Source: a virus
Lineage: Duplodnaviria > Heunggongvirae > Uroviricota > Caudoviricetes
DNA: 35,177 bases
Virus record (IMG/VR): IMGVR_UViG_2690316321_000006
Reading direction: 5' to 3' (one strand)
Both the position numbers and the translations under genes were made by a program. The notes beneath the pieces are model-generated. The model saw only the letters and a list, made by a program, of their open reading frames with translations. It searched no databases and had not been told where the DNA came from. Shown in pieces: positions 2,993 through 35,177 of the stretch; within the stretch, counting starts at the first letter, position 1, and every line of letters begins with the position of its first letter.

Positions 2993-4773
2993 CCATACAC
3001 CTTAATTAAGCCCCGCCCGCTGTTCGCGCCGCCAGAGCTTTCCAGTGGTTCATTGATAATGGCGTGCATGCACGCCCATGCCAGATCCGCGTGGGAGACT
3101 TCTTCCGAACGGCTGGCCTCGAAGGTCACCTGACGCCCGGACGGGGTCAGGGTTTTGCGGATCGCCATAAATGCCTGCGCCAGATCCGTCCATCCAGCGT
3201 CAAACTCCAGTCGGTGTTTACGGACAACGTCCAGCGTTTTCAGCACCAGACGCTGTTTCACTTCCGGGGAATAAGAGAATGCCTGCACTGCCGGGAAGAA
3301 CTGTTTCACCAGTTGATGCACGCCGTGGCCGATACCGGTCACGTCAATGCCGATGTACGTCACGTTATAGCGCTCGGTAATTTTGCGGATATTCTCCGCC
3401 TGCGCCGCGAAGTCCATCCCGTGCCACTGGTGCTTTTCAATTACCCGAAACTTGCCGCCCTCAATGACCGGCGGCGCGACCACCACGCATCCGGCGCTGT
3501 CGCCGCTTAACGCCGGATCGTAGCCCACCCATACCGAGCGTTCGCCGAGCGGACGCAGGGCAAACGGCTTGTAGTCGTCCCAGACTTCCCAGCTATCGAC
3601 CATGCAACCCTGCAACATGCTGAGCGGGAATACCGATGCGGTATCGTCAATAAACTGGCACATAAACAGGTTGGCGAACTCTTCCGGCGAGTTCTCCAGC
3701 CTGAGTTGCTCAAGGTCGAACAGGTCATAACCCTGATTGATGGCATCCTCAACGGTGACGATTTGCCGCCACTGGCCGTCTTCACACAACCGCCCTGCCG
3801 ACAGCGCCCGATGGCTGATATCCAGTCGAATCTGTTCGCTCTTCGGCCTGCCCTTGTTGAACAGTTGCCCTGTCCAGAACTTATAGGCTTCATGGGTGAT
3901 GCTGGACGGCGTGGAGAAGTAGGTTTGCCGCCAGCGCTTCTGGCTGGCCATCCCCGCCGCGTTACGGCGCAGTTCCAGAAAGCGGTGTATCCAGAAGTAT
4001 TCATCCAGATACAGGTTGCCATGATAGGTCTGGGCGGTGCGGGCATTAGTGCCGAGAAAATACATCCGGCTATCATTATGCGGCAGGTGAATGACTTCGC
4101 CTTTCAGCTCAACATCCGCCTCACGAGCAAAATCGACAATGTACTGGCGGAACTGGTGCGCCTGCGCTTTGGAAGCAGAGAGAAAGATCTGGTTGCGCCC
4201 ACTTTCCACCGCATCCATAAACCCTTCCCGCCCAAAGAACATCGTCGCCCCAATCTGGCGCGACTTGTTGATATCGCGGATACGGTGTTCCAGTCCGGCG
4301 CGGTACCAGTGTTTCTGGTGCGGATACAGCCCGTCCAGAAATAGCTGTTTCAGCTTCTCCGCCTGCTCCTCGCTGATATGGTTGGTTTCCGGCTGTCTGC
4401 GCGGCCCGGCGTTACGCTTCGCAAGAGCAGGATTCAGGTCGACCTCATTGCCTCCCTGCTGATAGCGTTCAACCCTTGCCCCGCGCTCCATCTGCCGCCA
4501 GAGCAAATCGATCTCCTTAAAATCCTTCCCCTCTTTATTTTCCTTCACCGTGAGCTGGATCAGACGCGCCTCGGTCACCGCCGTCACCCGCTCCAGCGGG
4601 GCGGATTCATCCCAGCCGTCGCGCCGCTTCCAGCTATGCAGCGTGGTAACTTTCACCCCCAACAGTTCGGCGATCCGCGCGATGCGAAAACCCTGCCAGT
4701 ACAGATAGCGGGCTTTGCGGCGTGGATCTTCATCCTGAAGGGCAAGCAGATGTTTTTCGATGTCTGGCGGCAT
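2989..4773 (-). CDS. P: Terminase large (ATPase) subunit (P2 gpP-like)
   Basis: 594-aa ORF, ATG at 4773; N-terminus MPPDIEKHLLALQ... typical of P2-family terminase ATPase; divergent from O. Confidence 0.9.
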   Translation of the reverse strand: MPPDIEKHLLALQDEDPRRKARYLYWQGFRIARIAELLGVKVTTLHSWKRRDGWDESAPLERVTAVTEARLIQLTVKENKEGKDFKEIDLLWRQMERGARVERYQQGGNEVDLNPALAKRNAGPRRQPETNHISEEQAEKLKQLFLDGLYPHQKHWYRAGLEHRIRDINKSRQIGATMFFGREGFMDAVESGRNQIFLSASKAQAHQFRQYIVDFAREADVELKGEVIHLPHNDSRMYFLGTNARTAQTYHGNLYLDEYFWIHRFLELRRNAAGMASQKRWRQTYFSTPSSITHEAYKFWTGQLFNKGRPKSEQIRLDISHRALSAGRLCEDGQWRQIVTVEDAINQGYDLFDLEQLRLENSPEEFANLFMCQFIDDTASVFPLSMLQGCMVDSWEVWDDYKPFALRPLGERSVWVGYDPALSGDSAGCVVVAPPVIEGGKFRVIEKHQWHGMDFAAQAENIRKITERYNVTYIGIDVTGIGHGVHQLVKQFFPAVQAFSYSPEVKQRLVLKTLDVVRKHRLEFDAGWTDLAQAFMAIRKTLTPSGRQVTFEASRSEEVSHADLAWACMHAIINEPLESSGGANSGRGLIKVYG

Positions 4774-8377: not shown

Positions 8378-8400
8378 AGCCCGATTCGTCGGGCTGTTTT
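8378..8400. terminator. Bidirectional hairpin terminator between convergent accessory genes
   Basis: agcccga-ttcg-tcgggct followed by gtttt; separates 8105-8341 (+) from 8431-9084 (-). Confidence 0.55.
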
Positions 8401-8430
8401 CATTTGACGCTGACTTACTCTATTCTACAT

Positions 8431-9084
8431 TTAGTCAAGAGCCGACCAATACTCAGACTCTAACCAAGAGCACAGCATTTCAACATTTCTGATAGCTTCG
8501 AATATTTTCTCTTTAGTCGGGGATATTGTAGGTGGGAATAACCACGATTTTTCTTCCTGTTCGGAAGCCAAAAGTAGCTCACACTCCTGAATAAAGTATG
8601 GGCGAGGATATTTTTCCAAGTCATTTTTTGAGTGAGAAATATTAATTGAGGTAAGTTCCTCAGGATGCTGGACACGATTTCTCACCAAGGGAATTTGTTC
8701 AATTATTTCCAAATTTGCAGGACATTTTGCCATTTCCAACTCAATTTTGTTGAAAATTTCACGATAGCCATTAAACCAACCCTTCTTGAAATTTATATCA
8801 GATTTCACGCTATGATATCCTAAGCGATCTACCCACGCCTTCAGGTACAACTGAAGAGAAGACGAAAGCATCGATAATGCATGGTGCCCACAGGTTTCTA
8901 ATCCCGACTTTGCATCTAACCATTCATCTAAAAAAGCTGGTTCATCACTCTCACCATACGGCTGAATATAAGGTTCCACTTCATTCTCAATATCATTCAT
9001 GATGTTAACAAATGGTGCAGCAGCCGTTTCATAGAAATAAGTAACGAATCTTGTGCGCTCTTTAAGAAAAAATTCAATATCCAC
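8431..9084 (-). CDS. Hypothetical 217-aa accessory protein with R-x4-H motif (possible HEPN-like toxin or effector)
   Basis: AT-rich; the track start at 9102 is TTG, the preferred start is GTG at 9084 directly after AGGAGG; contains LVRNRVQHPEEL (R-x4-H); lies downstream of an RHH gene on the same strand. Confidence 0.5.
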   Translation of the reverse strand: MDIEFFLKERTRFVTYFYETAAAPFVNIMNDIENEVEPYIQPYGESDEPAFLDEWLDAKSGLETCGHHALSMLSSSLQLYLKAWVDRLGYHSVKSDINFKKGWFNGYREIFNKIELEMAKCPANLEIIEQIPLVRNRVQHPEELTSINISHSKNDLEKYPRPYFIQECELLLASEQEEKSWLFPPTISPTKEKIFEAIRNVEMLCSWLESEYWSALD

Positions 9085-9185
9085 AACACCTCCTACACAC
9101 AATGTTTAAGTTAATCAGTGCATATCGACTAATCTGGGCTGAACAAATAATCCTAACTTCTTAGCGCTGCTTGATATCTCCGTAA

Positions 9186-9356
9186 TTATCCTTTGGGTTC
9201 AATACCTCGTGACTGAAGTTCCTTACGCAAAACGCGTTTTATCCATGTTGCGAGAGAGGTATCTCCATCTTTACGAGCCTGTTCTTCAAGCTGCTTTCTA
9301 AATTCATGAGCAAGACGAAGTTGGTACTGATCTGTTTTAGCCTTTTCACTTGACAT
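9186..9356 (-). CDS. Ribbon-helix-helix (Arc/CopG-like) DNA-binding protein; putative antitoxin or autoregulator (56 aa, absent from the ORF track)
   Basis: Minus-strand ATG at 9356 to TAA at 9186; translation MSSEKAKTDQYQLRLAHEFRKQLEEQARKDGDTSLATWIKRVLRKELQSRGIEPKG has the beta-strand then two-helix RHH pattern; palindromic GTAATTAC operators overlap its start. Confidence 0.55.
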   Translation of the reverse strand: MSSEKAKTDQYQLRLAHEFRKQLEEQARKDGDTSLATWIKRVLRKELQSRGIEPKG

Positions 9357-9408
9357 TGTAATTACAAAATCCTTAGAATGATGTAGTTGTAATTACATCG
9401 CAATTACG
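9357..9408. promoter_or_regulatory. Operator/promoter region with repeated palindrome TGTAATTACA
   Basis: TGTAATTACA at 9357-9366 and 9388-9397 (31 bp apart) plus a degenerate copy GCAATTACG at 9400-9408; sits between divergent RHH gene and the 9498 ORF. Confidence 0.5.
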
Positions 9409-9497
9409 TGATGTTTTGCAACCCTTAAACGAACGAAGCCCGCAGGTGCTACCAACACCAACGGGCCTCTGACCACAACATTAAAGAGGCTAATGCT

Positions 9498-9704
9498 ATG
9501 GCTACCGCTAATAGTAACATACGCGCACATTCAAAGCTCTACACCTTCCTGAACGCCCGTTCCAACCGCCTGCTGCGCGAGATCCAGCCCCTGCGTCTGG
9601 TGTCTGTACTGGCAACAACTGAAATCGAGGCTCGCGACCTGCTGGCGGGTTTCCCGCTGGTGTTCGTCTCCTGCAAACCGCTGGAGGTGCGCCATGGTGC
9701 CTGA
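9498..9704 (+). CDS. Small protein resembling Icd-like (host cell division inhibitor-like) proteins of P4-type elements
   Basis: ATG at 9498 with AAGAGG 8 nt upstream; 68 aa; motif pattern recalled from P4-like island small ORFs; weak. Confidence 0.4.
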   Translation: MATANSNIRAHSKLYTFLNARSNRLLREIQPLRLVSVLATTEIEARDLLAGFPLVFVSCKPLEVRHGA

Positions 9705-25144: not shown

Positions 25145-25573
25145 ATGATGATGGTACTGGGGCTATTCGTCTTCAGCCTGAAAACCCTGCCCTATCAGGA
25201 TATGCAGCACGCCGTAGCGTGGCGGCATCCTGCCAGTTCCCGCGTGGGGCTACGTCCGGCCAGCCAGTTTATCGGCGTGGGTGACGAAACCATTACGCTA
25301 AACGGCGTGCTGTTGCCGGAACTGACCGGCGGGCGATTTACTCTGTTTTTCCTGCGTAAGATGGCCGATCAGGGGATGGCGTGGCCGCTGATTGAAGGCA
25401 CCGGCTCGCTGCATGGCTGGTTTGTGATTGAGAGTCTGAACGTCACACGGAGCGTCTTTTTTCGCGACGGTGCGGCCCGGCGCATTGAGTTTACGCTGGC
25501 GTTAAAACGTGTCGATCCGCCGAAGCTGGGTGGCTTGCTGGGCGACATCATCACGATGGTCGACGGACTATGA
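25145..25573 (+). CDS. U: Tail protein U (P2 gpU-like)
   Basis: ATG at 25145 with AAGGAGG upstream; the track's longer ORF from 25037 overlaps T and is rejected. Confidence 0.8.
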   Translation: MMMVLGLFVFSLKTLPYQDMQHAVAWRHPASSRVGLRPASQFIGVGDETITLNGVLLPELTGGRFTLFFLRKMADQGMAWPLIEGTGSLHGWFVIESLNVTRSVFFRDGAARRIEFTLALKRVDPPKLGGLLGDIITMVDGL

Positions 25574-26676
25574 CGATGTTAAACGCACTCTTAAACGCCC
25601 AGCCGCAACCGGAGTACAGCGTGGTGCTGAACGGTAAGGACATTACGCGGAATCTGGACAACCGCTTAATCAGCCTGCGTATCACCGACAACCGGGGCTT
25701 TGAGGCCGACGAACTGCAGCTCGAACTGGACGACAGCGACGGCCTGCTGGCGTTTCCGGCAAAGGGCGAAAAGCTAACGGTTTCTCTGGGCTGGAAGGGT
25801 GACGGCGTGATGCACCAGAATGTCTTCACAGTGGACGAACTGGAGCACAGCGGCGCACCGGACGTACTCAGCCTCCGCGCCCGCAGCGCCGATTTCCGCG
25901 ATTCGCTGAACGTTAAACGGGAACAGAGCTACCATGATGTGACGCTGGGCGCGATTGTGCAAACCGTGGCGGCACGTCATAAGCTGGAATCAACCGTCAG
26001 CGGCGAGCTGGCTGGGATCGCCATTGAGCACGTTGACCAGACTAACGAGTCTGATGCGTCCTTCCTAACCCGGCTGGCGCAAATGCACGGCGCTATCGCC
26101 TGCGTGAAAAATGATGCTCTGCTGCTGATGCCGACAGGTTCCGGTAAAAGCGCCAGCGGCAAGCCGCTGCCGGTCGCAACCATTAACCGCGAGGACGGCG
26201 ACAGCCACCGGTTCAGCATCGCGGACAGGGAAGCCTATACCGGCGTAACGGCCTACTGGCTGGATACGCGGCAGGCTAAAAAGCAGTCAACTGACGTGAA
26301 GCGCAAGACACGGAAAAACCTTCCGCAAACGCAACCAACAGAATCGCCGACGTCAGACACCTCATTCAACGCCGATAACGTGATGGTCGGCGAAGAGGGA
26401 AATATCAAGGTGCTGCGCCACACCTATGCCAACAAAAATAACGCCTACAGAGCGGCAGAAAGCGCGTGGGAGCTATTACAGCGAGGCGCGGCAACGTTCA
26501 GCCTGAATCTTGCGCGTGGACGGCCCGATTTGTTCCCGGAATTGCCGGTGCCGGTGCAGGTGAAGGGGTTTAAGGCTGAGATTGATGGCACCGCGTGGGT
26601 GATTACGCGGTGCGTGCATACGTTGGATGGCGGTACTGGTTATGTCACCGCATTAGAAATGGAATTAAGTTTATAG
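25570..26676 (+). CDS. D: Tail protein D (P2 gpD-like)
   Basis: 368 aa; ATGA overlap with U; last late gene as in P2. Confidence 0.85.
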   Translation: MTMLNALLNAQPQPEYSVVLNGKDITRNLDNRLISLRITDNRGFEADELQLELDDSDGLLAFPAKGEKLTVSLGWKGDGVMHQNVFTVDELEHSGAPDVLSLRARSADFRDSLNVKREQSYHDVTLGAIVQTVAARHKLESTVSGELAGIAIEHVDQTNESDASFLTRLAQMHGAIACVKNDALLLMPTGSGKSASGKPLPVATINREDGDSHRFSIADREAYTGVTAYWLDTRQAKKQSTDVKRKTRKNLPQTQPTESPTSDTSFNADNVMVGEEGNIKVLRHTYANKNNAYRAAESAWELLQRGAATFSLNLARGRPDLFPELPVPVQVKGFKAEIDGTAWVITRCVHTLDGGTGYVTALEMELSL

Positions 26677-27927
26677 TAATCCTAAATGAACCATAATAGC
26701 CATTAAGATCATTCCACCACCTAAGGCTGTCGGAATCCAGCATAAGCATTGAAAGAAAAGAAGGTAACGATTTAACATGACCTGATTTTTGTCTAAATTA
26801 TCCTTTGCATTGCATACTAATTTTTTCAAATCTTCTGTATAACCTACAGATTTTTTCACTAATGGGGAAAATATAATATCTTTAGCATCACAAATCATCC
26901 TAAACTGTGTGTATTGACTTCTTACAATAAAAAACATAATTATCGACGTGAGCAATACACCTAAAAAAACCACTAACATTTCCGGCAGGGTATTTAATTT
27001 TATCATGCCAAAAGTAGCAACCAAAGAAACAGGAATACCTAAAAGCTTAGCTATCATGTCTGACATTATTTTTGAAAAACGCTCAGCTAAATTAGCTTCT
27101 GCCTCTGCCACTTCCTTTCTTACTTTATGAAATGAAAAACCACTAAGATATACACCGAGGTTATTATGGTATAGTTTTAGAAATTCATCCCACTCACAGA
27201 ATAAAAAATGAAACTGTTTCTTTACATCGATTGATTCAAGAAAATCGACCACCGTATTAATGAAAATCCCTTTTCGCTCAAAATAATTATCATCCGTTAT
27301 AGCTTTTTTTTCATCAGAAAAAGATTCGATGATTTTTAAATCCTTAATACCTGTTAAAAGAAGTGAATAATCAACATTAGTTTCAATAATTAAAGGTAAT
27401 GACTTAGCATTAGTATTTTTCAAGAAAACTAACTTATGGCATACATCATCACTTTTACTATTGCTGTAGTGTGCAACTTTTGATAGACATAAAATAAAAT
27501 CACAAAGATTCTTTAAAACAGATAGTTCTGGTATTTTTGCTAATCCCTCAACCATTCCTTCATTAAAATAAAAATCTTCCTCAACCAAGTAAAAAGACTT
27601 TCTTAAAATACCTCTATTTAACATCGGAGACTTTTGAATTAGATCTTTAATATCGATAAAAAATGACTCACTGGCTCCAGTTGATATAGAGATTGTCAGT
27701 GTTATTGATGTTCCTTTAGCGGGAAGGCTATCATCAACATCTATATCCACATCATCAATGACAATCTCTTCAATTTCTCCCCACGCGGTATGAGGTTGCA
27801 AAGAAACTAAGAGTTCATATATATGAGCATCATAAGAAATAGTTGCTGAAAAACGATTATTAATAGCATCAAATTTAGGACGCCCTACATATCTGAAAAG
27901 CTCAACAACCGTTTCAAAACATGACAT
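26671..27927 (-). CDS. Accessory protein with large soluble N-terminal domain and 2-3 C-terminal transmembrane helices (candidate membrane effector); third gene of AT-rich operon
   Basis: Preferred ATG at 27927 (track start 27936 is TTG); strongly AT-rich; hydrophobic segments LVVFLGVLLTSIIMFFIV and LLFFQCLCWIPTALGGGMILMAIMVHLGLL at the C-terminus; its stop overlaps the D stop convergently by 6 bp. Confidence 0.6.
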   Translation of the reverse strand: MSCFETVVELFRYVGRPKFDAINNRFSATISYDAHIYELLVSLQPHTAWGEIEEIVIDDVDIDVDDSLPAKGTSITLTISISTGASESFFIDIKDLIQKSPMLNRGILRKSFYLVEEDFYFNEGMVEGLAKIPELSVLKNLCDFILCLSKVAHYSNSKSDDVCHKLVFLKNTNAKSLPLIIETNVDYSLLLTGIKDLKIIESFSDEKKAITDDNYFERKGIFINTVVDFLESIDVKKQFHFLFCEWDEFLKLYHNNLGVYLSGFSFHKVRKEVAEAEANLAERFSKIMSDMIAKLLGIPVSLVATFGMIKLNTLPEMLVVFLGVLLTSIIMFFIVRSQYTQFRMICDAKDIIFSPLVKKSVGYTEDLKKLVCNAKDNLDKNQVMLNRYLLFFQCLCWIPTALGGGMILMAIMVHLGLL

Positions 27928-27985
27928 ATTAAGCAACCTTATTTTTCGCTATTTCTTTCTTTTATTAACTCATCAAGCAATTGAG

Positions 27986-29086
27986 CTATTTCACTTTTTT
28001 CTCAGGAGTAATCCGAGTAAAAGTTAAATGTCCAGTTTTCTTATTATAGCATATCTCATTATCAAGAGTATTGCCTAGTAAACTAGATTTAAACTCAAAA
28101 TTAACATTATCACTTGTATATTTAATATTTCTGTTTTTCTTAACTACTGATTTGCTTACCCTAAATTCCACAGGCACACGAATACTTTCACTATTCAAAT
28201 GAGCATATAATTCTTCTGACAATTTATCTTTAATGTCATCTTCTAAATTAACCATATGCTTCGCTGCCATCTCACTAACAACAGAAAGCTTAGCTGAAAT
28301 GTTATTCTCAGAACAATCGAATAAATACTCAATAATTTCATTTTTAAATTTACGGGCATTATCCTTTAATTCTTGATGATTTCTGAAGAAGTTAAAAGAT
28401 TCATTAATTAAATTACTCGTAGCTTTAGTTGATGTATTACCTTTATCACAACCTAAGGCAGTAATGAAATACCCTGAAGTTGTCTGGTTAGAACTGGGAC
28501 TAACAAAACTTAAATAATTAACATCCTGTCTTTCATTCTCATCAGCGGAAATATATTTATCATACAAATCATAGTTTATTCGTGCCGCCTGATTTAGTTT
28601 TGCCAGATCAAGATGCTCTAACTCCTTTGGTTCTAATTTATCACTAATAACTATACCTTCCTTTTGCTTAATCATTGCAATAAGAAAGTAACGCACGGAT
28701 TTACTGATATAATCAGCAAAAAGAAGTAATCCTCCTGATGCAGCAGGTCGATCCTTTGCCTCAATATATAACTGATGCATAACATTTTTTGATAATCCTA
28801 TAAACAATTCATCGTCTAACTTCTTGGATGTATCATTCCGATATTTATCAAATGCCGCTGGAAAAGGCCCCCTACGTGTTTCATCTAAATTAAATATACC
28901 ATAATGCGAGCTATTAGATTTTTTACCATACAATGCGGCTATACTGGACACTAGTTTAATTACGATTTCATTATTTCGGTCAAGAACCGTATCACGGCGA
29001 CTATATGGTTTTGAGTGATCGAAATCTTTATGTTGCTCTTTTATCAACCTATGAACAACCACGCACCCTAATGAAATATCAGACAT
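27986..29086 (-). CDS. NdpA/YejK-like nucleoid-associated-protein-family member (accessory); second gene of AT-rich operon
   Basis: 366 aa; collinear similarity to E. coli YejK as recalled from memory (MSDISLGCVVVHRLIKEQ vs MSLDINQIALHQLIKRDEQ; ASGGLLLFADY vs ADGGFVLFCHY; YLSFV vs YLTFL); RBS TGAGG upstream. Confidence 0.65.
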   Translation of the reverse strand: MSDISLGCVVVHRLIKEQHKDFDHSKPYSRRDTVLDRNNEIVIKLVSSIAALYGKKSNSSHYGIFNLDETRRGPFPAAFDKYRNDTSKKLDDELFIGLSKNVMHQLYIEAKDRPAASGGLLLFADYISKSVRYFLIAMIKQKEGIVISDKLEPKELEHLDLAKLNQAARINYDLYDKYISADENERQDVNYLSFVSPSSNQTTSGYFITALGCDKGNTSTKATSNLINESFNFFRNHQELKDNARKFKNEIIEYLFDCSENNISAKLSVVSEMAAKHMVNLEDDIKDKLSEELYAHLNSESIRVPVEFRVSKSVVKKNRNIKYTSDNVNFEFKSSLLGNTLDNEICYNKKTGHLTFTRITPEKKVK

Positions 29087-29100
29087 ATAACCTCACAATC

Positions 29101-29673
29101 CTATGGTAAATAAAAATCTTTCGCTTTATTTTCTAAATCAGTCCATCTACTGCTAATATTCTTTTCCTTACAAACAAGAAAAGCCTGATACCCTAAAAAC
29201 TCTTTCGTTTTCTTTAAATTATCTTCAGTAACATGACTCTTTTCTTCATTGTTGTTTTTCCATCCACAGAAATATATTCTGTCTGCTTCTTCAACATCCC
29301 TGACATGCACAGCAATATCAGTATATTTTGCCTTATTCTTAACAGTAACCGATGGAGGGATTTTCCCATCAAAATCTTCAAAAAACTTACTTGTTCTAAA
29401 TGGATTGGCAGGGTCATATTTCAAACCTAGAGCCTTGCATAATTCTTTATAAGTCTCACTTCCCAGATTAGGATTTATGACGAATCCCTTCTCGACTTTT
29501 AGACGAAAGCAAAGATTAGCGCCTAATGCTCCGAAAAGAAGCTCAAACGGTTTTCCATCAATAAAGAAAAATACATCAAAATGTAAATTATTGTGTCTGT
29601 ATGGGAATTTAACCCTATCCAATTTTTGCTCTGTCATGTTCCTGTAAAGAGCAACCAGATTATTCAACTTCAT
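29101..29673 (-). CDS. Hypothetical 190-aa protein; first gene of AT-rich accessory operon
   Basis: ATG at 29673 with GGAGG 5 nt upstream; AT-rich; no recognisable motif; 14-bp gap to the next gene. Confidence 0.55.
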   Translation of the reverse strand: MKLNNLVALYRNMTEQKLDRVKFPYRHNNLHFDVFFFIDGKPFELLFGALGANLCFRLKVEKGFVINPNLGSETYKELCKALGLKYDPANPFRTSKFFEDFDGKIPPSVTVKNKAKYTDIAVHVRDVEEADRIYFCGWKNNNEEKSHVTEDNLKKTKEFLGYQAFLVCKEKNISSRWTDLENKAKDFYLP

Positions 29674-29713
29674 TTTGCCTCCATACAGACAATAACCAAA
29701 TTCATTCTACTCG

Positions 29714-30052
29714 TTATCCCTTAGCTGCTTTCCCTACTCCCGGTTGCGCAAGCGCAGCGCTAACCGTGTCAAGGGTGGACTGGTGTTCTGGCGTAGCAGA
29801 ACGATAGTTTTCCACCAACACACTCTCTTTACTGGACAACGTAACTACAGGCGTGCGGTTGCCTGTTAGAACATACAGAACATCAACTCCCGCTGCCGCT
29901 ATGCCAGCAAGATAGTCACTGTCCGGCTTACGCAACCCATTCTCATAGTTGCTTTGTGCGTTTTTCTTCACGCCCCCAAGTTGTCCAAAGCCGTCTTGAT
30001 CAAGTCCAAGTCGGATACGTTCTTCCTTCAAACGGATGCCAAATTCTTTCAT
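29714..30052 (-). CDS. HTH (XRE/CI-like) transcriptional repressor, putative immunity repressor
   Basis: 112 aa; N-terminal helix-turn-helix; divergent from the small regulator / ogr / primase operon, as for P2 C versus cox. Confidence 0.7.
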   Translation of the reverse strand: MKEFGIRLKEERIRLGLDQDGFGQLGGVKKNAQSNYENGLRKPDSDYLAGIAAAGVDVLYVLTGNRTPVVTLSSKESVLVENYRSATPEHQSTLDTVSAALAQPGVGKAAKG

Positions 30053-30132
30053 TTGGATATAATTACCATTGACAATTCACTCAATTGAGGGAATTATAGA
30101 TTGTGTAATGTTAATAACCACAATATACCACC
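30053..30132. promoter_or_regulatory. Divergent promoter/operator region of the lysis-lysogeny switch
   Basis: 80-bp AT-rich intergenic region between divergent repressor and early operon; TTGACA at 30071-30076; dyad aattc...gaatt around 30077-30096. Confidence 0.45.
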
Positions 30133-30339
30133 ATGAAAACAAATGAGAACGTCTTACGCTCACGAGCACCCCGCGGGGTGATGTCGAACAAACCGGTGGC
30201 AATGCGTCTGCTCCCCGCTGAAATCGCGGAATTGGAAGCATTAGCGCTGGATCAGAACCGTTCGATGTCCAGCATGGCAAGAATCATTTTTTTGAACGGC
30301 ATCACATTTTTTCGTCAGTCCGTTAACGAAAAGCGTTAA
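30133..30339 (+). CDS. Small regulatory protein in the Cox/Apl position (possible RHH-like)
   Basis: 68 aa; first gene of the rightward early operon; segment MRLLPAEIAELEALALDQNRSMSSMARI resembles RHH/MobC-type N-termini; weak. Confidence 0.4.
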   Translation: MKTNENVLRSRAPRGVMSNKPVAMRLLPAEIAELEALALDQNRSMSSMARIIFLNGITFFRQSVNEKR

Positions 30340-30375
30340 TGTTTCAGTTAGTTAAAAGTGGTAAGGAGACAGGAC

Positions 30376-30606
30376 ATGATGAAATGCCCACACTGCGACG
30401 GTAAGGCGATAATTCGCAGCAGCGAATATATGTCACCGCTGGTACGTAAGCTCTATTACCAGTGCAAAAACGTTAACTGTTCGTTTTCATTTATCGCAAT
30501 GGAAACCGTGATGGGAACGGTGGTACCGAGCGGTTGCCCGAATCCTAAGATACACATACCGCTATCCACACGCGGGCAATTTCTGCAAAAACAGAAAATC
30601 GCGTAA
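30376..30606 (+). CDS. ogr: Ogr/Delta-family zinc-finger late-gene transcription activator
   Basis: ATG at 30376 with AAGGAG 7 nt upstream; MMKCPHCDGKA...YYQCKNVNCSFSF matches the Ogr C-x2-C...C-x4-C finger (P2 Ogr: HCPLCQH...YHQCQNVNCSATF). Confidence 0.85.
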   Translation: MMKCPHCDGKAIIRSSEYMSPLVRKLYYQCKNVNCSFSFIAMETVMGTVVPSGCPNPKIHIPLSTRGQFLQKQKIA

Positions 30607-30694
30607 CGCTCAGTAAATAAAAGACTCACAACCACAACGCATAAACAACGTGTCTATGCGACGGGTAAGTATTACCTGAATAAAGGTACTGGCA

Positions 30695-33349
30695 ATGCAA
30701 CCACAACTTCATCAGGAAATTACGCGGCGACTGCTGGCCGACTTTTCCTTTAAAGAACAGGGCGACTGGCTGCGGCAGGGCATCTGCCCGGACTGCCAGA
30801 AAAAAGAGCTGTACACCAACGCCATCAGCCCGTGGGTACTGCGCTGCGGTCGCCTGAATAAATGCAATGCCGAAATCCATATCAAAGAGGTGTACCCGGA
30901 TCTATTTGAAAGCTGGTCAGACAGATATCCCCCAACCCCGGAAAACCCACAGGCCGCCGCCGATGCCTACCTGCGCGAGATGCGCGGCTTTGACCTTTCG
31001 CTGCTCCGTAACTGTTACGCTCAAGAGAACTACTACGACGCACGGCGCGATATCGGCTCGGCCACCGTGCGTTTCCCGCTGGCTGACGGCGTGTGGTGGG
31101 AGCGGATCGTTGACCGCCCACAGCGTTTCGGCGATCGCAAAGCCAACTTTCACGGCGCTTACAGCGGGCTATGGTGGCTATTGCCAACGCTGAAGCTGGA
31201 AGAACAGCAGGAGATCTGGCTGGTTGAGGGCATTTTTGACGCTATCGCCCTGCACCACCACGGCATTGCCGCCGTTTCCCTGATGACCTGTAACAACTAT
31301 CCGGCGCAGGCGTTAAGCCAACTGGCCGCGCTGTTCGTGGATAAAAAGCGCCCTTTACTGGTCTGGGCGCTGGATAACGACAAGGCGGGCATGAGCTATA
31401 CCCGGCGATGGGTAAAGCGCAGCCGGGACGAAGGCTGGAGCGCAGCCGCCGCACAGACGCCGCATTCCCGCAGCAAGCTGGACTGGAACGATTTGCACCA
31501 ACGCGACCGGCTTAACCCAGAGCTAGTGAAGAAATACCGCTACTACGGCTCTCTGCTGATCGCCACCTCTCCCGCCGCCAAAGCCCTGCTGATGCACGAA
31601 CAGACAGAGCGTAAAGAGTTCCACTTCGAGTTTGACAGCCGCCTGTTCTGGTTCAAGCTGGATATTGACCGCTATATGCGGGTGCATGAAAGTATCTCAT
31701 TCTCCAATGACGACCTGAGCGAAGAAGAGCTGAAACAGAAGGCGCTGAAAGAGTCGTCCGCCGTGGTGGAGATCGCCAACTGCTACCCGACCGCCCTCTA
31801 CTATCAGGCCAACACCATCACCGACGAAAGCTGGTATTACTTTCGCATTAACTTCCCGGACGACACGCCGCCGATAAAAAACACCTTCACCGGCTCCCAA
31901 CTTTCCAGCGGCTCAGAATTCAAAAAGCGCCTGCTGCATATCGCGCAGGGCGGCATCTTCACCGGCACCAGTCAGCAGTTAGATAAGTTGCTGCTCAAGC
32001 AGCTTCCCAAAATCAAAACTGTCCAGACCACTGATTTTATCGGCTACAGCAAAGAATACCGCGCTTACGTGTTCAACGATCTGGCCGTTCGCGATGGTCG
32101 GCTGTACACACTCAACGAAGAAGACTTCTTCGACATGGGCAAACTCAGCCTTAAAAGCCTGAACCAGTCGGTCAGCCTGACGCTGAACGACAATTTAAAA
32201 CAGATGGACAGCCAGTGGCCCCAGCTACTCTGGCAGGCGTTTGGCGCAAAGGGCTTTGTGGCGCTGGCGTTCTGGTTTGGGACGATGTTTGCCGAACAGA
32301 TCCGCGACAAGCACAAGAGCTTTCCGTTTCTGGAAATCGTTGGCGAACCCGGCAGCGGCAAAACCACGCTGATAGAGTTTCTCTGGAAGCTGTTAGGCCG
32401 ACGCGACTATGAAGGTTTCGATCCGTCTAAATCAACGCTGGCCGCCCGCGCGCGCAACTTTGCGCAGGTGGCGAACATGCCGGTGGTGCTGGTCGAGGGT
32501 GACCGTAATCAGGAGGGTGCAAAGCAACGCGGCTTTGATTGGGAAGAGCTAAAAACCGCCTATAACGGGCGGTCAGTGCGGTCTCGCGGTCTGCGTAACA
32601 GCGGTAACGAAACCTATGAACCTCCGTTCCGGGGCTCGATTGTGATTGCGCAAAACGCCGACGTTAGCGCCTCTAACCCGGTGCTGGAACGTATTATTCA
32701 CCTGTACACCGACCGCAGCGGCCAGAATACTCAGACCAAGGTCGCTGCCGAGCAGCTCGAACGCCTGCCGGTGGAACAGCTTTCCGGCTTTATGCTGAAA
32801 GCAGCGCTGGCGGAACAGGCCGTGCTGGAGTGCGTCAACCGGCAGATCCCGCTATACGAGCAGCAGCTTCACGCCCACCCCGATATTCGCCATATCCGCA
32901 TCATTAAAAACCACGCCCAGCTTATGGCGCTGCTCGACGCGCTGGCGCTGGTTATTTCGGTCACGAAGGAGCAGCTACAGGCAACCAGAGAAATGTTTAT
33001 CCGCCTCAGTCTGGAGCGCCAGCAGGCCATCAGCGCCGACCACCCTCTGGTGCAGGAGTTCTGGGATATTTTCGACTTCCTCGATGGCGACGACGAACCA
33101 CAGCTCAACCACTCGCGCGATGAACAGCTTATCGCCGTCAACCTTAACCACTTTATTCAACTGGCCACCGAACGTCGCCAGCAGATCCCACAAGTCAGCG
33201 ATTTAAAGCGGGTACTGAAAACCAGCCGTACCCACAAGTTTATTGAAGTCAGAACGGTTAACAGCGGCATCAACGCTGAATTTAACCGCCGTTACCCAGC
33301 CGCATCGCGCCGCCCGGCGACGGTGAAGTGTTGGGTTTTTCAACGATAA
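30695..33349 (+). CDS. Replication primase-helicase (zinc-binding, toprim-like and P-loop NTPase domains; P4 alpha-like)
   Basis: 884 aa; Cys cluster CPDCQ...C...C; toprim-like EGIFDAIAL and LDNDKAG; Walker A GEPGSGKTT; replaces the P2 A/B replication genes. Confidence 0.7.
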   Translation: MQPQLHQEITRRLLADFSFKEQGDWLRQGICPDCQKKELYTNAISPWVLRCGRLNKCNAEIHIKEVYPDLFESWSDRYPPTPENPQAAADAYLREMRGFDLSLLRNCYAQENYYDARRDIGSATVRFPLADGVWWERIVDRPQRFGDRKANFHGAYSGLWWLLPTLKLEEQQEIWLVEGIFDAIALHHHGIAAVSLMTCNNYPAQALSQLAALFVDKKRPLLVWALDNDKAGMSYTRRWVKRSRDEGWSAAAAQTPHSRSKLDWNDLHQRDRLNPELVKKYRYYGSLLIATSPAAKALLMHEQTERKEFHFEFDSRLFWFKLDIDRYMRVHESISFSNDDLSEEELKQKALKESSAVVEIANCYPTALYYQANTITDESWYYFRINFPDDTPPIKNTFTGSQLSSGSEFKKRLLHIAQGGIFTGTSQQLDKLLLKQLPKIKTVQTTDFIGYSKEYRAYVFNDLAVRDGRLYTLNEEDFFDMGKLSLKSLNQSVSLTLNDNLKQMDSQWPQLLWQAFGAKGFVALAFWFGTMFAEQIRDKHKSFPFLEIVGEPGSGKTTLIEFLWKLLGRRDYEGFDPSKSTLAARARNFAQVANMPVVLVEGDRNQEGAKQRGFDWEELKTAYNGRSVRSRGLRNSGNETYEPPFRGSIVIAQNADVSASNPVLERIIHLYTDRSGQNTQTKVAAEQLERLPVEQLSGFMLKAALAEQAVLECVNRQIPLYEQQLHAHPDIRHIRIIKNHAQLMALLDALALVISVTKEQLQATREMFIRLSLERQQAISADHPLVQEFWDIFDFLDGDDEPQLNHSRDEQLIAVNLNHFIQLATERRQQIPQVSDLKRVLKTSRTHKFIEVRTVNSGINAEFNRRYPAASRRPATVKCWVFQR

Positions 33350-33977: not shown

Positions 33978-35177
33978 TTACGGGCGGTATTGCTTGATCC
34001 ACCCATCAACCATATCCGCCCACTGCTGCAACATATCACGGCGCTGCTCTGCGTATTCCGCTTTGTTATAAACGGCTCTGACGCTTCTTTCCTCGTGCGC
34101 GAGGCATTTTTCTATCCAGTCGGAATTAAACCCCGCCTCATGCAATAACGTCGAGGCCGTTCGGCGCATATCGTGAACGGAAAACGACGCCAGCCTGATC
34201 CCCCGTTCCTGCGCCTGCTTAACCGTAAGATTAATGACCCGGTTTAAGGTCGCCGCCGACATGGTCTTATGCGACGACTGATTGCATGAAGGCAAAACCC
34301 AATCACTGCTTCCTGCGCACATTTTCAGGGCAATCAGAATGTCCTGTGCCTGCCGGGACAGATAAACATTATGATCCCGTGATCCCTTCATCCGGCTGGC
34401 GTCAATCGTCCAAAGGCAGGCATTAAAATTAACCTCACCCCACGGCGCGTTCAGCAGTTCACTTTTACGCACCATCGTTAATAAAACCAATTTAATGGCC
34501 AGCTTGATGGTGGGTAATGTACCCGTTTGTTCAAGCTGATTGAAAAACCAGCCTATCTCCTCTGGCTTGAGCGCCCTGTCGCGCGCTTCGAATGTCGCAA
34601 TTGAAGCCGGTAAAACCTCTTCGGCAGGATTGGGGTAATAGTCGCCGTGAAGCGCGGCGAACTTAAATACCGCACTAACGATATTGCGAACCTGAATCGC
34701 CGTCGCTGGCGCACCACGCGCTTTTATCTTGTCGCAATACTCACGTAGGAGAGAGGGGGTTATCTCTGACAGCAGCTTGCGCCCCCATACTGGGGTGATG
34801 TCTCTGTCGATAATGCTTTGCTTCATCGCCCTTGTGCTGTCCGCCAGCCGGGTGTGTTTCATGTAGCTGACGGTAAAATCGTGGAGTGTCTTTTCTTCTT
34901 TTCGCTTTGTTTTACCGTCACGCTTCTCTCCAGCGGGCGATATTCCTGCATTTACGCGTTTTTTAGCTTCCACTAATTTTTCGCGCGCCTGCGCCAGAGA
35001 AATACCGTCACCATAGCGACCAATCGTTAACGTTTCACGACGACCATTGATTCGATAGTCATAGCGAAACGTCACCAATCCCTTGGGAGATACGGTTACA
35101 TACAGCCCATCACGGTCTGCAACTTTATAAAGTTTTTCCCGCGCTTTGAGGTTTTTCAGCTTGGTATCGGTCAGCAT
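33978..35177 (-). CDS. int: Tyrosine integrase, P4/CP4-57 family (arm-binding N-terminal domain plus catalytic domain)
   Basis: 399-aa ORF whose ATG is the last three bases of the window; N-terminus MLTDTKLKNLKA...DGLYVTVSPKG typical of P4-type integrases; C-terminal R...H..R...Y catalytic region; attachment site expected just right of the window. Confidence 0.9.
   Translation of the reverse strand: MLTDTKLKNLKAREKLYKVADRDGLYVTVSPKGLVTFRYDYRINGRRETLTIGRYGDGISLAQAREKLVEAKKRVNAGISPAGEKRDGKTKRKEEKTLHDFTVSYMKHTRLADSTRAMKQSIIDRDITPVWGRKLLSEITPSLLREYCDKIKARGAPATAIQVRNIVSAVFKFAALHGDYYPNPAEEVLPASIATFEARDRALKPEEIGWFFNQLEQTGTLPTIKLAIKLVLLTMVRKSELLNAPWGEVNFNACLWTIDASRMKGSRDHNVYLSRQAQDILIALKMCAGSSDWVLPSCNQSSHKTMSAATLNRVINLTVKQAQERGIRLASFSVHDMRRTASTLLHEAGFNSDWIEKCLAHEERSVRAVYNKAEYAEQRRDMLQQWADMVDGWIKQYRP

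Follow-up and report, generated by a model that had tools for sequence, protein, structure and literature searches.

A candidate anti-phage cargo abutting the immunity repressor of a P2-like prophage and its possible dependence on the repressor promoter

In phage lambda, the exclusion or abortive-infection genes rexA and rexB are located directly behind the immunity repressor gene cI on the same strand, and their expression in the lysogen from the maintenance promoter (PRM) has been shown. In P2 and 186, the repressor belongs to a leftward operon with further genes (C-int, transcribed from Pc, and cI-int, transcribed from pL, respectively), and the lytic and lysogenic promoters are arranged face to face. 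A related arrangement exists in the IMG/VR virus record IMGVR_UViG_2690316321_000006, a stretch of 35,177 nucleotides (“the window,” always at its full length), where three accessory genes, here termed cargo, lie directly 3' of an immunity repressor gene on the same strand, separated from it by a gap of 40 nt. The most economical reading of this locus is that the cargo depends on upstream transcription from the repressor promoter, to which we would assign a probability of about 0.62; what has been demonstrated for lambda is here predicted from the DNA sequence. The features that carry the argument are listed below, with minus-strand coordinates running from high to low.

30149..30122, minus strand: predicted maintenance promoter of the repressor (Pc), with the −35 element TTCTCA (30149..30144), a 16-nt spacer ending in TG and the −10 element TATATT (30127..30122).
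30069..30097, plus strand: predicted early lytic promoter (Pe), TTGACA-17-AATTAT, 10.3 bits, found by consensus scan and weight matrix.
30052..29714, minus strand: immunity repressor, a helix-turn-helix (HTH) protein of 112 aa with its stop codon at 29716-29714 (open reading frame (ORF) listing and sequence).
29764..29744, minus strand: conserved 21-nt block GTTAGCGCTGCGCTTGCGCAA near the repressor 3' end (alignment of the window with the related loci L002, L004, and L005).
29713..29674, minus strand: untranslated repressor-cargo spacer of 40 nt (ORF listing and sequence).
29673..29101, minus strand: cargo module 1, DUF6037 protein (PF19503) of 190 aa (Pfam).
29086..27986, minus strand: cargo module 2a, YejK/NA37-like nucleoid-associated protein (NAP), Pag2A-like, 366 aa (Pfam NA37).
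27927..26671, minus strand: cargo module 2b, Pag2B-like membrane effector; 418 aa when counted from the ATG, while the ORF itself is open from a TTG at 27936.

An earlier note on this DNA had drawn the analogy to lambda cI-rexA-rexB. As far as the architecture is concerned, the analogy stands: in lambda as well as here, a membrane protein (RexB and a transmembrane (TM) protein, respectively) serves as the effector and a soluble partner as the sensor. It does not extend to homology with RexA or RexB, as searches of the cargo against Pfam, PADLOC, and PHROG returned NA37, DUF6037, and phrog_5023 only and no Rex families from Pfam or PHROG. In contrast to lambda, the sensor is a YejK-like nucleoid protein and an unrelated DUF6037 gene comes first; moreover, the phage is P2-like, with predicted face-to-face promoters, an Arc-like lytic regulator and a putative operon that ends against a convergent tail gene. 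While P2 and 186 carry the integrase gene behind the repressor, this place is taken here by what appears to be an exchangeable defense cargo, and the integrase is encoded elsewhere (33978-35177), away from the repressor.

A second point of comparison is the defense system PANGU. In its type II, a YejK-like sensor leaves the nucleoid once phage nucleases degrade the host DNA, and the released sensor then attaches to a TM effector at the effector's acidic DNA-mimic domain, which leads to abortive infection (bioRxiv 10.64898/2026.04.06.716658). The distal part of the cargo shares with this system the succession of a YejK/NA37-like protein and an effector whose N-terminal domain is acidic and whose TM part is C-terminal, as well as the occurrence in Escherichia coli. 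The preprint describes bicistronic operons and does not mention prophages (bioRxiv 10.64898/2026.04.06.716658), whereas the pair studied here would form the distal part of a repressor operon, is preceded by DUF6037 and carries a frameshift in the NAP gene. The location has a precedent as well. According to the available excerpt of the iLund4u preprint (10.1101/2024.10.15.618418), which attributes the observation also to Rousset et al. 2022, P2-like phages possess a diversity hotspot with variable cargo between the last tail gene and a CI-type regulator, i.e., at the same location. This excerpt reports the location; co-orientation with CI, gaps of 4-40 nt, breakpoints in the flanking genes and cargo of the PANGU or DUF6037 kind are not among the points it makes (10.1101/2024.10.15.618418). 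The classical P2 hotspots (old/tin between gpA and gpQ; Z/fun in the tail genes) are not matched, as the cargo lies between gpD and the repressor, at a “third hotspot.”

The repressor was assigned to Pfam HTH_3 and HTH_31 and to PHROG families of transcriptional regulators or repressors (E 2.7e-12). The distance of 40 bp that the earlier note had given between the repressor stop (29714) and the cargo start codon (29673) was found to be exact. Within this spacer, a GGAGG Shine-Dalgarno sequence is located 6 nt 5' of the DUF6037 ATG at 29673, and the spacer of locus L174 has the same length and is identical in 35 of 40 positions. A consensus scan identified no terminator-like site in or beside the spacer, factor-dependent termination being outside the reach of such a scan, and the junction RNA (29790..29640) folds no better than shuffled sequences (z = −1.16). 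The only hairpin, situated in the repressor 3' end, was rejected as a terminator, as it lacks a U-tract and its stability is not unusual. On the minus strand, the consensus scan detected no promoter-like site from 29674 to 30100. In a weight-matrix ranking, the best junction candidate (GGGAAA-19-TAGAAT) reached 4.6 bits, a score that is matched or beaten by 64% of random same-strand stretches of 127 nt. Its −10-like hexamer TAGAAT (29709..29704) is replaced by TAGGAT in a prophage of 99.6% identity and by CAGAAT in a further relative. With TACAAT at the aligned place in L002, this hexamer was also considered as a promoter brought by the cassette, and it was rejected because of the missing −35 element, the missing TG, the lack of conservation and the chance-level score. 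The view that no recognizable terminator or strong promoter separates repressor and cargo is therefore well founded.

The predicted Pc is the top-ranking sigma-70-like site of the entire minus strand of the window (11.5 bits, 99.999th percentile in the weight-matrix ranking) and was also found in the consensus scan; its transcripts would start near 30115. It is conserved in L002, L004, and L174 and takes the form TTTTCA / TGgTATAGT in the Erwinia relative L005, whose repressor is 69% identical. The earlier note had placed the repressor promoter in a switch region at 30053-30132. This interval indeed exists, as the 80 bp between the divergent start codons of the repressor and the Arc-like gene, and it holds the predicted −10 element, but the promoter is not confined to it, since the predicted −35 element reaches 30149 and thereby falls within the first codons of the Arc-like gene. 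On the opposite strand, the TTGACA of Pe is conserved in L005 and L174. The assignment of Pe is tentative because a second plus-strand candidate (ATGCCA-16-TATAAT, 30036-30063) scores 11.2 bits. The best candidates for Pe and Pc are convergent, with predicted start sites about 11 nt apart, and alternative candidates are present. A head-on arrangement of repressor and lytic promoters, known from P2 and 186, is predicted here as probable.

The cargo interval (~26680 to 29740) exhibits a GC content of 28-36% (31% for the island) compared with 55-60% in the flanking phage genes (58% for the phage), and its sequence marks it as a putative horizontally acquired anti-phage cassette. The three genes had been taken together as one cargo operon. 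Their co-orientation behind the repressor is confirmed, but they do not make up a single unit and represent two independent modules, namely a stand-alone DUF6037 gene and the NAP-TM pair. The DUF6037 family has few homologues. In lambdoid prophages of Yersinia ruckeri and others, and in Ralstonia, the gene occurs as a lone opposite-strand moron (L166/L167 7001-7561 in Y. ruckeri, L168; L164 in Ralstonia). It is situated between the Q/antiterminator region and the holin gene in the lambdoid prophages, where its own upstream region comprises 251-314 nt, and inside a tail gene cluster in Ralstonia. The NAP-TM pair is elsewhere likewise an opposite-strand moron and, in lambdoid phages, comes with an upstream region of its own (215 nt in L173, 842 nt in Klebsiella phage P7641). 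An NA37 gene is located directly upstream of the TM effector homologue in L170, L172, and L173, with no DUF6037 gene in the contexts examined; P7641 shows the same two-ORF layout, although its upstream ORF of 383 aa carries no annotation. A role of DUF6037 as a third PANGU component was rejected on these grounds: its homologues occur singly or ahead of unrelated modules, while the examined TM effector homologues have NA37, and no DUF6037 gene, directly upstream.

In the window, the upstream regions of the modules are cut down to 40 nt (DUF6037) and 14 nt (NAP-TM), each with a good ribosome-binding site; the NAP gene starts 14 nt past the DUF6037 stop codon and is preceded by a GAGG Shine-Dalgarno sequence. 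Read-through from the repressor gene is favored because terminator and promoter are absent at the junction and the upstream regions of the modules are trimmed. In addition, the gaps between the cargo genes are operon-like, and this layout is conserved in relatives with quite different cargo.

These relatives were obtained from GTDB genomes, IMG/VR, and Logan contigs with the repressor as query, while the collection of complete E. coli genomes yielded only four copies of the prophage, which is rare (4/5,426). In total, 64 syntenic loci share the layout primase <- ogr <- (Arc/Cox) / repressor -> [slot] <- gpD <- gpU <- T, in all of which the repressor is divergent from the early operon of Arc-like, Ogr, and primase genes. 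The slot is 0.7-6.2 kb long and has a lower GC content than its locus in 63 of the 64. Based on heuristic gene calls, the slots encode 89 clusters of proteins with 100 aa or more, and the strand of the repressor accounts for 74% of the called cargo residues. By the same calls, 44 of 49 distinct architectures begin with a gene co-oriented with the repressor (binomial p = 8e-9, the architectures not being phylogenetically independent); all genes are co-oriented in 24 of them, and 15 show a co-oriented block followed by a gpD-proximal block on the opposite strand. The cargo includes CBASS (cyclic oligonucleotide-based antiphage signaling system), PDC-M53, PDC-M11, PDC-S20, KAP NTPase, ThsB-TIR, caspase, toxin-antitoxin pairs, and UmuDC. 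The distance between the repressor stop and the first cargo gene varies as follows:

L085: gap of 4 nt; WYL, ThsB-TIR, and caspase genes, co-oriented.
L005 and L084 (Erwinia, repressor 69% identical): gap of 13 nt; CBASS cyclase and effector with four TM segments, co-oriented.
L004: gap of 17 nt; three cargo genes of no assigned family, co-oriented.
L002 and L003: gap of 31 nt; NA37 and RelA_SpoT protein (toxSAS-like), a pair that fits type I PANGU, co-oriented.
Window and L174: gap of 40 nt; DUF6037 first, co-oriented.

Where the gap measures 4-17 nt, a separate promoter could be accommodated only within the repressor coding sequence. The DUF6037 gene is the first gene behind the repressor in two different arrays: in L174, it is 89% identical to that of the window and again follows at 40 nt, but is succeeded by TIR, caspase, and PDC-M11A/B genes without NAP. 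This array (L174 7622-11414, Logan contig ERR3479927, from a relative integrated elsewhere) comprises five co-oriented genes in three stacked modules, i.e., DUF6037, TIR plus caspase, and PDC-M11A plus PDC-M11B (ASCH), separated by gaps of 10-40 nt. In another relative, L085 (IMGVR_UViG_2531839446_000022, 3660-4025), the N-terminal HTH half of the repressor is exchanged while the C-terminal half is identical and the backbone proteins are 95-100% identical, which looks like a mosaic immunity swap; the WYL protein encoded by its cargo is of a WYL-TM type, followed by ThsB-like TIR and caspase-like proteins.

The borders of the cassettes can be located by comparing prophages with different cargo. 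The block GTTAGCGCTGCGCTTGCGCAA, which contains the palindrome TGCGC-TT-GCGCA, is identical in repressor genes that are otherwise 69-87% identical. Just past it (~29741/29740), about nine codons before the repressor stop, the homology between prophages with different cargo ends, and the megablast match to E. coli strains L725 and CEC15 begins at position 29741 of the window. Consequently, the last ~9 repressor codons travel with each cassette. On the other side, prophages with different cargo cease to be homologous near 26644, some 10 codons ahead of the stop codon of the convergent tail gene:

25570..26676, plus strand: tail gene gpD (Pfam Phage_GPD), oriented toward the cargo, with a 6-nt overlap between its stop and the last cargo gene.

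With breakpoints inside both flanking genes, the cassettes lie flush with both, and no buffering intergenic region or terminator is left on either side. The slot between repressor and gpD appears to be a family-wide exchange point at which defense cassettes are swapped by recombination in the flanking 3' ends. The block GTTAGCGCTGCGCTTGCGCAA may serve as the preferred recombination point or may simply be a conserved codon stretch.

The following course of events is proposed. Most likely, a leftward operon of four genes begins with the repressor and continues with DUF6037, NAP, and TM effector. In the lysogen, the predicted strong, extended −10 promoter Pc (~30149..30122) would drive transcription of the repressor, and RNA polymerase, unhindered in the 40-nt spacer, would run on across the gaps of 40, 14, and 58 nt. 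As a consequence of such read-through, the cargo would be made only during prophage dormancy. Upon induction, the Arc-like protein and head-on transcription from Pe might shut down Pc and, with it, the cargo; antisense interference from the convergent late tail operon is a further speculation. By analogy, the NAP-TM pair would act like type II PANGU, with DUF6037 as a separate single-gene moron. It is an unlikely extension of this model that the slot constitutes a “lysogeny-only expression platform,” on which promoterless defense modules, trimmed down to their ribosome-binding sites, are stacked and exchanged at GTTAGCGCTGCGCTTGCGCAA. Abortive infection would then come on together with immunity and cease at induction, and the lytic cycle of the phage itself would be spared.

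Several observations weigh against dependence on the repressor promoter, the most general being that Pc, read-through and shut-off upon induction are all predictions made from sequence. DNA of 31% GC is a typical target of H-NS in E. coli, and Rho termination within the island might attenuate read-through. A weak hairpin with a poor T-run is found inside DUF6037 (29372..29349); it was rejected as a terminator and is no stabler than shuffled sequences. Owing to the frameshift in its gene, the NAP lacks 16 residues at the C-terminus, and the effector gene is set further apart, so that the NAP-TM system may be impaired in the window, unless the deletion is a homopolymer sequencing error. Furthermore, the PANGU assignment goes by resemblance to the published description of Pag2A and Pag2B. 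Finally, promoter-like sites exist on the coding strand of the AT-rich cargo, e.g., at 29587..29560 (9.6 bits) and 28680..28650 (9.1 bits), and could drive some of the genes independently, as PLIT does for lambda rexB. Taken further, this last point leads to an explanation in which the modules use promoters of their own, in the repressor 3' end, in DUF6037 or elsewhere in the island, and are uncoupled from Pc. It gains from the self-sufficiency of both modules as morons with long upstream regions in other phages, from the several coding-strand sites of 9-9.6 bits inside the island, from the established extra promoter of rexB, and from the fact that cassette-specific sequence begins 27 nt before the repressor stop, the 67 co-travelling nucleotides being enough for a minimal promoter. 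However, the native upstream regions of both modules are missing in the window, the first cargo gene follows the repressor stop at only 4-17 nt in relatives, and the best junction candidate is at chance level with a variable −10 hexamer (TAGAAT, TAGGAT or CAGAAT). AT-rich DNA also yields promoter-like matches by chance: in the consensus scan of 26000-31000, both strands together gave 23 matches compared with 13.1 ± 3.4 in shuffled sequences. On balance, independent expression is considered unlikely.

The layout might also reflect the choice of insertion site, the slot being the sole tolerated point at the ends of two convergent operons, where co-orientation merely avoids antisense transcription into the repressor and a destabilization of lysogeny. 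In agreement with this, the two borders of the cassettes fall into the final ~10 codons of the convergent genes on either side, genes on the opposite strand are usually gpD-proximal, as in the 15 of 49 architectures mentioned above, and the interval between tail protein and CI is reported as a general diversity hotspot in the excerpt of bioRxiv 10.1101/2024.10.15.618418. Such an explanation accounts neither for the loss of the module upstream regions nor for the abutment to the preceding stop codons at 4-40 nt; it is, moreover, compatible with read-through, as transcripts from Pc would enter the cargo anyway when no terminator is present. As a substitute for read-through, it is improbable. The 31% GC island could also be largely silent, with H-NS and/or Rho-dependent termination keeping cargo production in the lysogen low despite the operon-like layout; this possibility is highly improbable. 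The very low GC content of the island and the 58-nt untranslated stretch left by the NAP frameshift are consistent with silencing, and H-NS silencing of AT-rich immunity loci in E. coli is reported in a 2026 preprint (10.64898/2026.09.05.749240). On the other hand, tight gaps and good ribosome-binding sites favor translation and hence protect from Rho, and intact cassettes are kept across strains at 99% identity. Strong transcription from an upstream promoter is an established counter to H-NS. Dependence of the cargo on transcription from the repressor promoter remains the preferred reading.

With regard to the proteins, the NAP matches Pfam NA37 (PF04245, E 5e-46), YejK in the PDB (9be2, E 1.6e-9), and PHROG 3767; a literature search for PF04245 retrieved only unrelated work. 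The TM effector (PHROG 5023) has a net charge of −16 over residues 1-250 and hydrophobic helices at ~291-339 and ~389-418. Its AlphaFold2 model (pLDDT 84) has no fold match in the PDB, and a scan of the protein against IMG/VR gave no matches. The pair fits type II PANGU and was likened to Pag2A/Pag2B by description. The assumption of the earlier note that the cargo protects or benefits the lysogen finds support in this match to a published defense system, with the analogy to type II PANGU being descriptive. None of the three cargo proteins has a match in PADLOC v2, a library that predates the PANGU family. In strains L725 and CEC15, the same prophage slot contains genes for NA37 and a RelA/SpoT-domain protein, a sister cassette that by analogy fits type I PANGU. 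Relative to the 99.6%-identical prophage L001 (E. coli GMF054), the NAP gene of the window shows a 1-nt deletion in an A-run (A6 vs. A7; window 27990-28000, near 27994). The protein therefore ends in ...EKKVK (stop) instead of ...EKKSEIAQLLDELIKERNSEK (stop), and the last 16 residues of the 382-aa relative are lost. Due to the same deletion, the gap between NAP and effector genes is 58 nt in the window compared with 11 nt in L001 (type II PANGU: <40 bp). The deletion may be genuine, with the frameshift inactivating or attenuating the gene, or may stem from a sequencing error in the homopolymer. DUF6037, in turn, has a confidently predicted fold for which no structural relative was detected in the PDB, and no paper on the family turned up in the literature search; within the platform extension of the model, it could represent a new single-gene defense or exclusion factor.

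The hotspot between tail protein and CI, PANGU itself and the design of the lambda cI-rexAB type are already published. Relative to the literature compared, the new elements are the presence of PANGU-like cassettes in this prophage slot, where near-identical prophages carry type I-like or type II-like variants; the strong co-orientation of the slot with CI and the abutment of cargo to CI; the cassette breakpoints in the flanking genes; and DUF6037 as a recurring first gene behind the repressor. These observations place nucleoid-sensor systems of the PANGU type on temperate phages, where type I-like and type II-like variants swap at one locus, and they flag DUF6037 as a defense candidate; current understanding is not overturned. 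If the cargo is indeed driven by the repressor promoter, expression and shut-off of toxic abortive-infection genes would be tied to the life-cycle decision of the prophage, and a simple rule for finding and expressing defense genes in this phage family would be to look at whatever follows CI.

Adjacent to the repressor, the early rightward genes comprise:

30133..30339, plus strand: Arc-like (ribbon-helix-helix) lytic regulator, 68 aa (PHROG phrog_3431 “Arc-like repressor,” E 1e-23, profile positions 1-65 of 67; weak Pfam RHH_5).
30358..30606, plus strand: Ogr/Delta late-gene activator of the early rightward operon (Pfam PF04606, E 1.2e-19).

By its position, the Arc-like regulator can be regarded as the analogue of P2 Cox or 186 Apl. 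In RefSeq, its gene is annotated with two different starts (159 and 207 nt) in the near-identical prophages L001 and L002. The 68-aa form starting at 30133 is favored because the PHROG match is full-length; no obvious Shine-Dalgarno sequence precedes this start. The divergent repressor and small lytic regulator, the Ogr/Delta activator and P2-type tail genes together correspond to the switch of P2-like phages (Peduoviridae).

The window contains essentially a whole P2-like (phiCTX/RSA1-type) prophage, since its first 1.07 kb consist of host genes and its integrase end abuts guaA in E. coli relatives. Pfam and PHROG identified P2-type portal, terminase, and tail genes, Ogr/Delta, a Toprim primase-helicase and a tyrosine integrase. 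The phage collection contains no close isolated phage: for the tail region, matches are confined to distant phages of the RSA1-like and P2-like kinds, and the cargo region gave no megablast match to isolated phages. Rfam and tRNA scans of the window were likewise without matches.

At the convergence point of gpD and cargo, no canonical terminator was found on either strand. A GC-rich hairpin with a 9-bp stem is located at 26588-26613 (minus-strand RNA, antisense to the gpD 3' end), about 60-85 nt past the last cargo stop. The surrounding 121-nt stretch folds better than shuffled sequences (z = −3.8), with no U-tract following, and the hairpin could be an atypical 3' end or a stabilizer of the leftward operon. 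A second low-GC island (39-43% vs. ~58%) is situated among the plus-strand late genes at 8400-9600 of the window. It contains two minus-strand ORFs, at 8431..9102 (223 aa, phrog_28203, no match in Pfam or PADLOC) and 9186..9356 (56 aa), and looks like another moron, possibly another defense candidate. At the left end, the first two ORFs are the host genes, coding for a glycine-zipper lipoprotein and a DUF5384 protein, and an ORF-free stretch of 37% GC (~1200-1800) before the portal gene presumably contains the attachment site and the cos region.

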